Sequence record: PZ357121.2
Origin: a phage
Reading direction: 5' to 3' (one strand)
DNA length: 64,000 nucleotides
The notes under the pieces are model-generated. The model was not told where the DNA came from and did not search any database. It worked only from the letters and a program-made list of their open reading frames with translations. Below, piece after piece: positions 2,669 to 59,738 of this stretch (the first letter of the stretch is position 1; every line of letters starts with the position of its first letter). The position numbers and the translations under genes are program-made.

Positions 2669-3001
2669 TCACTTATAAAGACACGGAATAGCTTTATAGT
2701 GGCATGTTACGAATTTCTGTTTAATTTCTTTAGGTTGTTTAAGACCTAAAGCCACAAATGGATGTGGAACATTTCGAATTTGTCCAACTGGTAGTGGAGT
2801 CAAATCACCGACTTCAACAAAACCTTCAGGAACATCAGGACCTACAGAATGAACTACACATAGTTCAGGAACTTCACCTTGAACACGTTTACCAATCACA
2901 AGTCCTGATTCTGTAACTTCTTCATCACCTGCTTGAGCGGGTTCAGAAACCAGAATGACATATTCACCAACAGCACGAATTGGGAGTTGTACTTCAGACA
3001 T
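2669..3001 (-). CDS. 31: gp31 co-chaperonin (GroES analogue for capsid folding)
   Basis: 110 aa, near-identical to T4 gp31 ([29 protein letters not shown]...). Confidence 0.95.
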
Positions 3002-3058
3002 CTTATTTCCTTGTTGTTTGACGATAGATTAATAATACCATACTATTCGTAAAGCATA

Positions 3059-3367
3059 TTACATAAGAAGCAAACGTTCTACAGGAGTACCATCAACCGA
3101 AATTACTTTATCAAGGCGGAAAGAACGCCACTGACCTAACTTGGTATCGAATGCTCGAACTGATTCACGAGGTTCATAACGAACTTCTGTTGCCGGATTG
3201 TTATTTTCATATTTGACTTCAAGTTCATCACGAGAAGCAAACATCGTGCGAACATCACCATTAGCCTTTTCAAATATAACACAATGAACGCCTACAGACA
3301 GAATAGTTTTAATACGTTCACGAAGAACCATAGTTTCTTGTTCAGTTAAAATCATATTATTCACCAC
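3059..3367 (-). CDS. hypothetical protein (31.1-like position)
   Basis: 102-aa ORF between gene 31 and cd, same strand. Confidence 0.55.
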   Translation of the reverse strand: MVNNMILTEQETMVLRERIKTILSVGVHCVIFEKANGDVRTMFASRDELEVKYENNNPATEVRYEPRESVRAFDTKLGQWRSFRLDKVISVDGTPVERLLLM

Positions 3368-3938
3368 AAAAGTTTCGGATTTGTTCCCAATTCAGAGAAC
3401 GAAGATTATTACGAGAGTACTGAATTACTTCAATACCGGCTTGTTTAAGAATGTCTGCCCAATTTTCAGGAGATCTGTCATATAACTCAGCGTATACAAC
3501 CTTTTTAATACCTGACTGCGTAATAGCTTTAGTGCAATCAGGACATGGAGAAAGCGTAGTATATAACGTAGCACCTTCAATAGAATTACCTTTACGAGCT
3601 GCAAATAAAATTGCATTCAATTCTGCATGGATTTCGTTATTAGCAGACCATGCACTATGAGCAGCCCGATGTTCTTTAGCCAAAACAAAATTATCTGCCC
3701 GTCCAAATGCTGTAGTACCTTCTTTATGACCAGCAACGATGACCGGGCTTGGTTTATTCTTCAACCAACCGTTTTCGGATGCATGTTCGCAACAGTTTGT
3801 ACCACCTGAAGGAGAGCCATTATAACCTGTAGAAATAATGCGTCCATCTTTTTCAATGACTGCGCCAACTTTCCATGAACAACATTTTGATTCTTGAGAA
3901 ATCAGATATGCAATCTGAAGGTATGTGCTAGCTTTCAT
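3357..3938 (-). CDS. cd: dCMP deaminase
   Basis: 193 aa with zinc-dependent cytidine/dCMP deaminase motifs HAE (HAELNAILFAARKG) and PCxxC (SPCPDCTKAI); T4 cd position. Confidence 0.9.
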   Translation of the reverse strand: MKASTYLQIAYLISQESKCCSWKVGAVIEKDGRIISTGYNGSPSGGTNCCEHASENGWLKNKPSPVIVAGHKEGTTAFGRADNFVLAKEHRAAHSAWSANNEIHAELNAILFAARKGNSIEGATLYTTLSPCPDCTKAITQSGIKKVVYAELYDRSPENWADILKQAGIEVIQYSRNNLRSLNWEQIRNFCGE

Positions 3939-58463: not shown

Positions 58464-58523
58464 TTCAATTTCCTCTGTAGTTGATAGAAAGATAGTAACA
58501 CAGTATGTGGGGCTTGTAAACAG

Positions 58524-58781
58524 TTATTTTAAACTTTTGCGAAATTTGCGTTTTTCTTGACGAATCTGTCGTTTAGTCGGACGTACAGCAAATTTAACGA
58601 AGTCCACTTTGCCGTGTGGAAACTTTTCAGATGCTTCACAGTCCATCATTAGTTCCCATCCTTCCAGAATAAGAGCTTTCCATTGTGTAGTTGATGCAAA
58701 TTCGTATGTTGATGGTTTAAACACAGTTGAATACATATTATCCTCTGAAATCAGCTTCGAAAACTTTCTCGTCATTAACAA
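58524..58781 (-). CDS. hypothetical protein
   Basis: 85-aa ORF overlapping the 3' end of dmd; start uncertain. Confidence 0.4.
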   Translation of the reverse strand: MLMTRKFSKLISEDNMYSTVFKPSTYEFASTTQWKALILEGWELMMDCEASEKFPHGKVDFVKFAVRPTKRQIRQEKRKFRKSLK

Positions 58782-58929
58782 ATGCTTTAACTAATGCGTT
58801 GTTCACTTCAGCAAGTTGTACCGCAACCCACTCGATTTCTTCACGGTCGCCTGATAACATGATATCTTTAGTGAACGTATTATCATTTTTAAACCAGCCA
58901 ATAAAAGTAACTTTAGTTAATTTGCTCAT
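58738..58929 (-). CDS. dmd: Dmd antitoxin (inhibitor of host RnlA/LsoA toxins)
   Basis: ATG at 58929 with GAGGAAAT RBS gives 63 aa (MSKLTKVTFIGWFKNDNTFTKDI...ALVKAFVNDEKV), resembling T4 Dmd as I recall it. Confidence 0.7.
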   Translation of the reverse strand: MSKLTKVTFIGWFKNDNTFTKDIMLSGDREEIEWVAVQLAEVNNALVKAFVNDEKVFEADFRG

Positions 58930-59243
58930 ATTTCCTCGCAAAATGCCCATTCAGCGTGATAAACTGTAGCACCTTTAGTATTATTCATTTGAACTACATC
59001 TACCGGAGAAATTACTCGATAGAGACGTGGTTCACCTCCATAAGAGCGTGCTGCTCGTCCTGCATAAATCTTTGCTAAACCGATATCTTCGGTAAAGAAT
59101 ACACGATCCAAGTTTTTCTTACGTCCTGTTTCAGACAGAACTCCTGTTTCTTCAGGAGGACAAAGCATGTTTTCGATGTTAGCTGAACTACTTGAACCGT
59201 GATAAAAAATCTTAAATTCTGCTTTACAATCGATGGTTTTCAT
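58926..59243 (-). CDS. hypothetical protein translationally coupled to dmd
   Basis: 105 aa; its stop overlaps the dmd ATG (ATGA); contains FYHGSS and a downstream E-rich segment. Confidence 0.5.
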   Translation of the reverse strand: MKTIDCKAEFKIFYHGSSSSANIENMLCPPEETGVLSETGRKKNLDRVFFTEDIGLAKIYAGRAARSYGGEPRLYRVISPVDVVQMNNTKGATVYHAEWAFCEEI

Positions 59244-59298
59244 TTTGTTCTCCAGTAGTTGATAGGTCTATAATAACACAACTACTGGAGAAGTAAAC

Positions 59299-59673
59299 TT
59301 AAAAACGTAATTTAGATATATCTGCGTTGATTTCGTTTTGGTTTGCGTCGTATGCAATTAAACGAACCGCTTTAGATGGGTCATTCAATGCATAGAAATG
59401 ATGGAACATTGCTCGAACGATATCACCATTTACGAGTTCTACCTGGACAGGAGAACCTTTTTCGAGTTGGAAATGTTCATAAGCTTTGATGGTTCGCAGA
59501 TAATCAAGTTTTTGATTTCCGGCTCCAACAATTTGTACGATACGTTTGCCCATGTTTTCCATACGAGATACAATAGTTTTAGGAGCAAGAATAACGTAGG
59601 TTGCCAGCGGAGAAACTACTTCAACAGTTGTGTTTTCGGTGATTGCAGTAAAAATTGCTTGAGACATATTCAT
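59299..59673 (-). CDS. hypothetical protein
   Basis: 124-aa ORF downstream of gene 41. Confidence 0.5.
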   Translation of the reverse strand: MNMSQAIFTAITENTTVEVVSPLATYVILAPKTIVSRMENMGKRIVQIVGAGNQKLDYLRTIKAYEHFQLEKGSPVQVELVNGDIVRAMFHHFYALNDPSKAVRLIAYDANQNEINADISKLRF

Positions 59674-59738
59674 AATGTTTTCCTCTTGGTTTGTGTAAGT
59701 ACATCATATCATGCCTAGAGGAAGATGTAAACCCCGAA

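Follow-up and report, generated by a model that had tools for sequence, protein, structure and literature searches.

A predicted minimal Arr-like ADP-ribosyltransferase encoded upstream of dmd in a Mosigvirus phage

In the 64,000-nucleotide stretch of phage DNA considered here (sequence record PZ357121.2, in the following referred to as the window), the gene lying directly upstream of the antitoxin gene dmd codes for a 105-aa protein, which we predict to be an early, free-standing and minimal ADP-ribosyltransferase (ART) of the Arr-like type, dependent on nicotinamide adenine dinucleotide (NAD+) and modifying a conserved host target. We hold this reading to be moderately probable, and it includes the placement of the protein on the diphtheria toxin/PARP-like (H-Y-E) side of the ART superfamily, with Arr, which ADP-ribosylates rifampicin, as its nearest characterised relative. 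The source phage is an RB69-type Mosigvirus, and the 1.26 kb around the ART gene show 99.3% identity to Escherichia phage JS09 and 97.9% to RB69. The coding sequence occupies positions 58926..59243 on the minus strand and begins with ATG, and the protein sequence starts with MKTIDCKAEFKIFYHGSSSS. It is 100% identical to RB69ORF040c (AAP75942.1), and the same sequence was found on 157 contigs. This open reading frame (ORF) is a real gene, because it aligns with PHROG 2110 over the full length (E 6.9e-60), has 140 homologues of 60-98% identity in the protein collection, and is present in 610 phage records according to tblastn.

An earlier note on this DNA, made from the letters alone, had pointed to a 105-aa ORF with an FYHGSS motif and later acidic residues, and both the ORF and its translation agree with that description: the motif comprises residues 13-18, and the acidic residues following it are E52-D53 (in FFTEDIG) and E103-E104 (in CEEI). 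The same note called the protein unknown, which is only partly so, since the identical RB69ORF040c is on record and some orthologues already carry the name ADP-ribosyltransferase. UniRef gives this name to several proteins of the 90%-identity cluster that also holds the present one, one homologue bears it in NCBI, and some GenBank/RefSeq phage records use it for the gene, including the one holding the identical protein of phage HX01. The assignment to the ARTs thus has precedents both in databases and in a survey from 2022, the latter having also predicted the pairing of the ART with Dmd, and the annotation itself is not new.

In regard to the fold, structure prediction and a Foldseek search, which the earlier note had proposed as a check, gave concordant results. 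The AlphaFold2 model of the 105-aa protein, built with 42 homologues, is confident (predicted local distance difference test score, 89.2; predicted template modelling score, 0.80) and presents the split beta-sheet core of the ART fold. Its best structural matches are the RNA 2′-phosphotransferase Tpt1 and Arr, followed by PARPs, pertussis-like toxins, DarT, ParT and RES, with KptA and Arr taking the top two places in Foldseek. As both Tpt1 and Arr use NAD, the suggestion that the H-G-S signature recalls transferases using NAD or RNA phosphates proved well founded. When a set of viral structures was searched, the first match not belonging to the protein's own family was to a phage protein that bears the name of Arr (E 2.9e-8).

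The link to Arr is also found at the sequence level. A family-profile search of 1.84 billion representative proteins retrieved 229 relatives, and a broad-family profile composed of 45 of them (A2) matches the Arr-ms structures 2hw2 and 9iaf with an E-value of 2.7e-4, while a close-family profile (A1) gave no match when compared with PDB. Individually, 20 of the 45 family members match the Pfam Arr-ms model (PF12120), the best of them with an E-value of 1.4e-10. However, the curated cut-off of the NCBIfam model for rifampin_ARR (NF033144), which is 130 bits, is not reached by the relatives, scoring 25-26 bits, and the query itself scores nothing against it. For this reason, the 105-aa protein is placed in the ART superfamily as a divergent sister to the Arr family, and it is not an Arr orthologue. 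When compared with the anti-CRISPR ADP-ribosyltransferase AcrIF11, the identity is 20% over 74 aligned residues, with no relation at the sequence level.

Conservation of individual residues was assessed on 66 broad-family sequences that are 27-54% identical to the query, and the elements described below are defined by this conservation together with the family-profile alignment to Arr-ms. The NAD-binding [FY]-H-G-[ST] motif, represented here by F13-Y14-H15-G16-S17-S18 (59190..59207, minus strand), is located at the end of strand beta-1. Both H15 and G16 are present in 66/66 sequences, as are the more distal E38 and Y60, and position 17 is either S or T in all of them; H15-G16-[ST]17 aligns to H19-G20-T21 of Arr-ms. 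The conserved E-x-G-R-K-K-N loop (E38-T-G-R41-K-K43-N44; 59112..59132, minus strand) holds R41 in 65, K43 in 55 and N44 in 56 of the sequences, and its E38-x-G-R41 part aligns to E40-A-G-R43 of Arr-ms. The aromatic pair that extends from F49 to Y60 (F-x-T...Y; 59064..59099, minus strand) is conserved to a similar extent, with F49 found in 65 and T51 in 63 sequences, and F49 aligns with Y49 of Arr-ms. The two aromatic residues are spaced by 11 residues, the first being Phe and the second Tyr. The same spacing of 11 characterises the Tyr pairs that clamp nicotinamide in diphtheria toxin (Y54/Y65) and in PARP1 (Y896/Y907), described as Y-x10-Y. In the H-Y-[EDQ] clade, which comprises diphtheria toxin, PARP, Arr and DarT, the first Tyr of the clamp belongs to strand beta-2. 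Judging from these residues, the family seems to represent the H-Y-E class in a variant form, H-[F]-x10-Y. Catalysis by the 105-aa protein is likely, though not certain.

The structural similarity to Tpt1 could alternatively be taken to indicate an enzyme that works on nucleic acids, as Tpt1/KptA and DarT do. Such an enzyme would take 2′-phosphates off RNA or attach ADP-ribose to the ends of RNA or DNA, its substrate possibly being RNA that ribonuclease toxins of the host have cut, and it would in this way act as a functional partner of Dmd. We consider such an activity unlikely. Tpt1 enzymes are defined by the catalytic tetrad Arg-His-Arg-Arg and by an N-terminal RNA-binding lobe, and neither of the two was found here: the catalytic His follows a Tyr, a Phe or a Trp and never an Arg, and the winged-helix RNA-binding domain is absent, the whole protein being equal to the ART core. 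Furthermore, the sequence relationship leads to Arr and not to Tpt1, with no sequence match to Tpt1 chains, and the protein is nearly neutral, having 13 K/R against 14 D/E residues in a count made by hand.

Regarding the distribution of the gene, tblastn located it in 610 of the 50,697 phage records searched. Sorted by host, most of these records belong to phages of Escherichia (216), Klebsiella (116), Acinetobacter (68) and Aeromonas (62), followed by those of Enterobacter, Shigella, Cronobacter, Vibrio and Citrobacter. The degree of conservation can be expressed relative to the replicative helicase gp41 encoded nearby. Compared with the phage studied here, Dhakavirus ARTs are 85-89% identical (gp41 67-68%), those of Slopekvirus about 70% (gp41 about 61%), those of Acinetobacter phages 70-73% (gp41 59%), and those of the 230-kb Aeromonas phages 65-68% (gp41 45%). 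The ART is therefore as conserved as the replicative helicase, or more so, and conservation at this level suggests that its target is conserved and important. The ART gene is missing from T4 and its close relatives, in which gp41 is 85% identical, and dmd of T4 is positioned directly after gene 41. In phage RB43, the copy of the ART gene (AY967407.1; positions 2932-3249 of the extracted locus, L058) has one base too many after approximately codon 23 (GAAAG[G]CATG). The H-G-S motif and the remainder of the protein are thereby put in different frames, so that the copy is a pseudogene unless the extra base is an error of sequencing.

Additional information about the potential role of the domain comes from the proteins in which its relatives reside. 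Many of them are embedded, either within proteins of 1,955-3,924 aa or, as the C-terminal part, in proteins of 400-1,000 aa. Companion domains found in such large ART-bearing proteins are ART-PolyVal, NUDIX, minor-tail domains, a lambda-type portal together with a 2H/Acb1 phosphoesterase, DUF7178, and GNAT with Toprim. In the literature on polyvalent proteins, and also in PMC9503650, polyvalent and ejected proteins are commonly read as sets of effectors delivered into the host together with the DNA. Embedding of the domain in proteins of this kind supports an offensive, effector role of the ART. The relatives of this domain often stand beside ART-PolyVal, whereas in the window the ART is the free-standing product of a predicted early gene and belongs to a different ART family; the Pfam search gave no match of the query to PF18760 (ART-PolyVal).

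Early expression is suggested by the sequence preceding the gene. A consensus scan predicted a promoter of the sigma-70/T4-early type at 59270..59297 on the minus strand, composed of TTTACT and TATTAT separated by 16 nt, with TG before the -10 element. The arrangement GTTTAC...TG-n-TA(T/C)TAT was also observed 5′ of the orthologues in JS98, TG1, PM2 and others. GTTTAC is typical of T4 early promoters. The next promoter-like site downstream of the ART was found at 58520..58492, because of which the transcription unit probably consists of the ART gene, dmd and 61.4. The last of these (58524..58736, minus strand), a homologue of 61.4 (DUF7279) according to Pfam (E 5e-20) and to the RB69 annotation, would probably be the third cistron, judging from the promoter scan. 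As we infer it, the ART gene would be the first cistron of this short unit, read from its own early promoter, and the enzyme would transfer ADP-ribose from NAD+ to a host component conserved across Enterobacteria, Acinetobacter, Aeromonas and Vibrio. A terminator-like site within the ORF (59158..59141) was rejected, as one such site was found where 1.4 are expected by chance.

The same intergenic segment is predicted to form a perfect hairpin of 14 bp (59248..59292, minus strand), in which the 5′ arm covers the -35 element and the spacer, the -10 element is in the loop, and the 3′ arm holds GGAG (59250-59253), the Shine-Dalgarno sequence of the ART gene. Its folding energy is -21.5 kcal/mol with a z-score of -4.8, and none of 200 shuffled sequences folded as well. 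Shorter pairing between anti-Shine-Dalgarno and Shine-Dalgarno segments occurs upstream of orthologues in JS98, TG1 and other phages, as TCTCC/GGAGA versus TCCTC/GAGGA, with apparently matching changes. In orthologues, the promoter and the pairing are often situated just 3′ of the terminator following gene 41. According to the proposed mechanism, a transcript initiated at the ART promoter, with the start at approximately 59262-59264, would lack the 5′ arm of the hairpin and be translatable, while in read-through RNA coming from gene 41 the ribosome-binding site of the ART would be sequestered in the hairpin and its translation blocked. Sequestration of the ribosome-binding site in a hairpin is the design used by the T4 genes e, soc and I-TevI.

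Several observations speak against the interpretation of the protein as an early ADP-ribosyltransferase acting on the host. Searched alone, the query had no match in Pfam, in NCBIfam or among PDB sequences. The classical Tyr of the H-Y-E class is replaced by Phe (F49). When a conserved catalytic acid was sought in the C-terminal half across the 66 sequences, where the H-Y-[EDQ] clade has its catalytic Glu, Asp or Gln, none was found at the position of Arr D84 or of the diphtheria-toxin Glu; position 87, which would correspond to Arr D84 if the profile alignment, ending two residues earlier, is extrapolated, is N in 38, S in 10 and Q in 6 sequences. The sole acid conserved throughout the broad family is E38. 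Since no C-terminal acid is conserved at the expected position, the protein could be a weak or atypical catalyst, or a binder only. Furthermore, the promoter and the hairpin are predictions from patterns and energies, and in the literature on RB69ORF040c, Arr-like phage ARTs and Mosigvirus ADP-ribosylation no enzymatic, expression or phenotypic work on any member of the family was found. Finally, the close coupling to the antitoxin-like Dmd, together with short overlapping ORFs downstream of the gene in several lineages, is compatible with a toxin accompanied by its neutraliser. E103, from the "CEE" tail, was inspected as a candidate for the catalytic Glu of the whole family and was not accepted: among the close group of T4-like phages it does not vary, but in the broad family the position is I/V/L in 38, E in 13 and D in 5 of the 66 sequences, with I/V/L in most of the distant relatives.

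The absence of a conserved catalytic acid at the expected position also fits another possibility, namely that the protein, in the manner of Arr, ADP-ribosylates a hydroxyl group on a small molecule such as a metabolite, an antibiotic or a nucleotide immune signal, or that it binds derivatives of NAD+ or ADP-ribose without transferring anything. Arr is indeed the closest family by sequence, and the protein is very small and without any extension for target recognition. On the other hand, the low scores of the relatives against the NCBIfam model, with none for the query, argue against a function shared with Arr, as does the absence of the approximately 40 C-terminal residues of Arr (105 versus 143 aa), and the genomic context suggests no small-molecule ligand. 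Arr Tyr49 is Phe here and the position of Arr Asp84 is not conserved, and the ART differs from Arr in its setting, which is that of phage early genes and polyvalent proteins and not of antibiotic resistance, with the query lying below detection by the family models. Taken in this form, a small-molecule function seems improbable to us.

Modification of a conserved host target by an Arr-like ART has further to be weighed against explanations based on the neighbouring dmd. On the minus strand, the order of genes is 41 (helicase), a 124-aa ORF, the 105-aa ORF, dmd, 61.4, imm.1, imm and sp. The second cistron, dmd (58738..58929, minus strand), codes for 63 aa, and its product matches Pfam PF17587 Dmd with 73.8 bits (cut-off 27; E 1.4e-20) and PHROG 2102 Dmd with E 1.4e-32. 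The overlap of the two genes, as described in the earlier note, is present: positions 58926-58929 read tcat on the plus strand and consequently ATGA on the minus strand, where TGA of the ART gene occupies 58928..58926 and ATG of dmd 58929..58927. The gene dmd has its own Shine-Dalgarno sequence, GAGG, within the 3′ end of the ART gene.

The survey by Iyer, Burroughs, Anantharaman and Aravind (2022; PMC9503650) predicts that a p0068-family ART and Dmd constitute a toxin-antitoxin pair of enterophages. It assigns the p0068-like ARTs to the H-Y-[EDQ] clade, and their genes lie immediately beside dmd in phages of Escherichia and Shigella. By this description, the pair in the window almost certainly corresponds to the published one. 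According to this explanation, the two genes would form a phage-borne type II toxin-antitoxin system with the ART as the toxin and Dmd as its cognate antitoxin. The overlap and the short ORFs downstream of the ART agree with it, yet we regard the system as unlikely on the basis of the distribution and variation of the two genes.

To begin with the overlap itself, 4-base overlaps were found at 7 of approximately 61 same-strand junctions in a 38-kb stretch of JS09, counted by eye, for example at dda/dda.1 and 46/46.1, and they include functionally unrelated pairs. As ATGA overlaps are common in the genome, coupling of this kind gives little functional inference. Adjacency of the two genes is likewise restricted. 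In 66 ART loci from IMG/VR, a Dmd-like ORF was present within 3 kb in 10 and immediately downstream of the ART in 9, and all 10 belong to the closest relatives; the adjacency is limited to Mosigvirus, Dhakavirus and close kin. Elsewhere, the ART is followed by a predicted lipoprotein of 96-117 aa, by a membrane peptide of 55-60 aa, by unrelated proteins of 81, 124 or 157 aa, or by no gene on the same strand. The downstream ORFs of these other lineages were inspected as alternative antitoxins and rejected, being mutually unrelated and having, in several cases, signal peptides or membrane helices.

The two genes are also mostly found apart. A tblastn search with Dmd of this phage (E <=1e-3) detected the gene in 798 phage records, the weakest matches being 45-57% identical, and at that sensitivity no match was obtained in Klebsiella, Acinetobacter and Aeromonas phages, though their ARTs are 63-73% identical to the one studied here. 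Of the 798 records, 566 hold the T4-type allele, less than 60% identical to Dmd of this phage, and, T4 among them, appear to lack the ART, and the host genera of ART and Dmd are mostly non-overlapping.

Where the two genes do occur together, they do not vary together. In six ART-Dmd pairs compared, the identity among ARTs was 78-100% and that among Dmds 51-94%. The ARTs of JS98 and of a further Dhakavirus contig are identical to each other, while their Dmds share only 56% identity. In the Mosigvirus LF82-4 (PV660448.1; positions 1182-1704 of the extracted locus, L073), the ART is 99% identical and the Dmd allele 54% identical to those of this phage, the latter at about the distance of T4 Dmd, and the junction of the two genes holds a 1-nt gap instead of the overlap. 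Such a mix of alleles indicates recombination exactly at the ART/dmd junction. Some JS98-like contigs also possess a second, longer Dmd-related ORF of 110-113 aa directly following dmd (jackhmmer E ~1e-15; positions 3532-3873 in locus L014 and 3498-3830 in L018).

A cognate pair would be expected to be inherited together and to co-vary, and because neither was observed, the data argue against a dedicated ART-Dmd toxin-antitoxin pair. The adjacency to dmd is most likely a lineage-specific arrangement within the variable early-gene region downstream of gene 41, and not a fixed partnership. Related to this, the earlier note had taken coupled expression with dmd to suggest a related countermeasure to host defence. 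Co-transcription from one promoter of the early type is plausible, but the functional part of that suggestion is weak, given that such overlaps are common, the adjacency is limited to certain lineages and the alleles are swapped.

An anti-defence role for the ART is nevertheless possible. In its more specific form, the ART would not be a factor of host takeover that modifies proteins; it would be Dmd's enzymatic partner in anti-defence, with a substrate other than protein, and might either ADP-ribosylate the ends that RNase toxins of the host leave on RNA or modify or sequester an immune signal derived from NAD. We find this version quite unlikely; if true, the ART-dmd cassette would constitute a two-pronged countermeasure, and the family would comprise the smallest ARTs known and introduce a new class of substrate.

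Other features of the locus were also noted. The 124-aa ORF between gene 41 and the ART (RB69ORF041c, PHROG 10668; 59299-59673, minus strand) has a promoter-like site at 59731..59703 and no match in Pfam or NCBIfam, and among the loci examined it is present only in those of Mosigvirus. In Slopekvirus and Aeromonas phages, the ART is preceded by a conserved protein of 252-306 aa with unknown function (the cross-matching PHROGs 7439 and 7204), exemplified by KP15_201 (L003, 1093-1968) and by ORF162c of Aeromonas phage 25 (L005, 1181-1939), which may be a steadier neighbour of the ART than dmd. Annotation of the start site of the ART is inconsistent across public records: the version of 80 aa given for Bas46 and Bas47 would drop the H-G-S motif, and that of Shigella phage Shf125875 has 149 aa.

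ADP-ribosylation by T4-like phages is otherwise known from Alt, ModA and ModB, whose targets include RNA polymerase of the host and translation factors. These enzymes belong to the R-S-E clade and have 200-680 aa, whereas the ART described here is of the H-[FY] type, has 105 aa and is absent from T4. In JS09, the genes for ModA and ModB (L072, 10024-11271) follow the ART gene on its own strand at a distance of about 7 kb, so that the early region holds at least three ARTs. Absence from T4 may explain why the gene has not been studied, despite at least 610 T4-like phages carrying it. The HIDEN-SEQ work on T4 and Bas37 makes no mention of Mosigvirus, Bas46 or Bas47. The toxicity screen of early proteins of Mosigvirus AV110 was limited to genes that have homologues in T4, and according to its authors early genes specific to Mosigvirus were missed.

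Alt, ModA and ModB of T4 serve as a model of host reprogramming by a phage, to which the Arr-like protein would add a fourth ART, unrelated to them and much smaller. Identification of its target would reveal either a new step in host takeover or a new enzymatic anti-defence activity, and it would at the same time settle whether Dmd has the second role proposed for it, that of an internal antitoxin.
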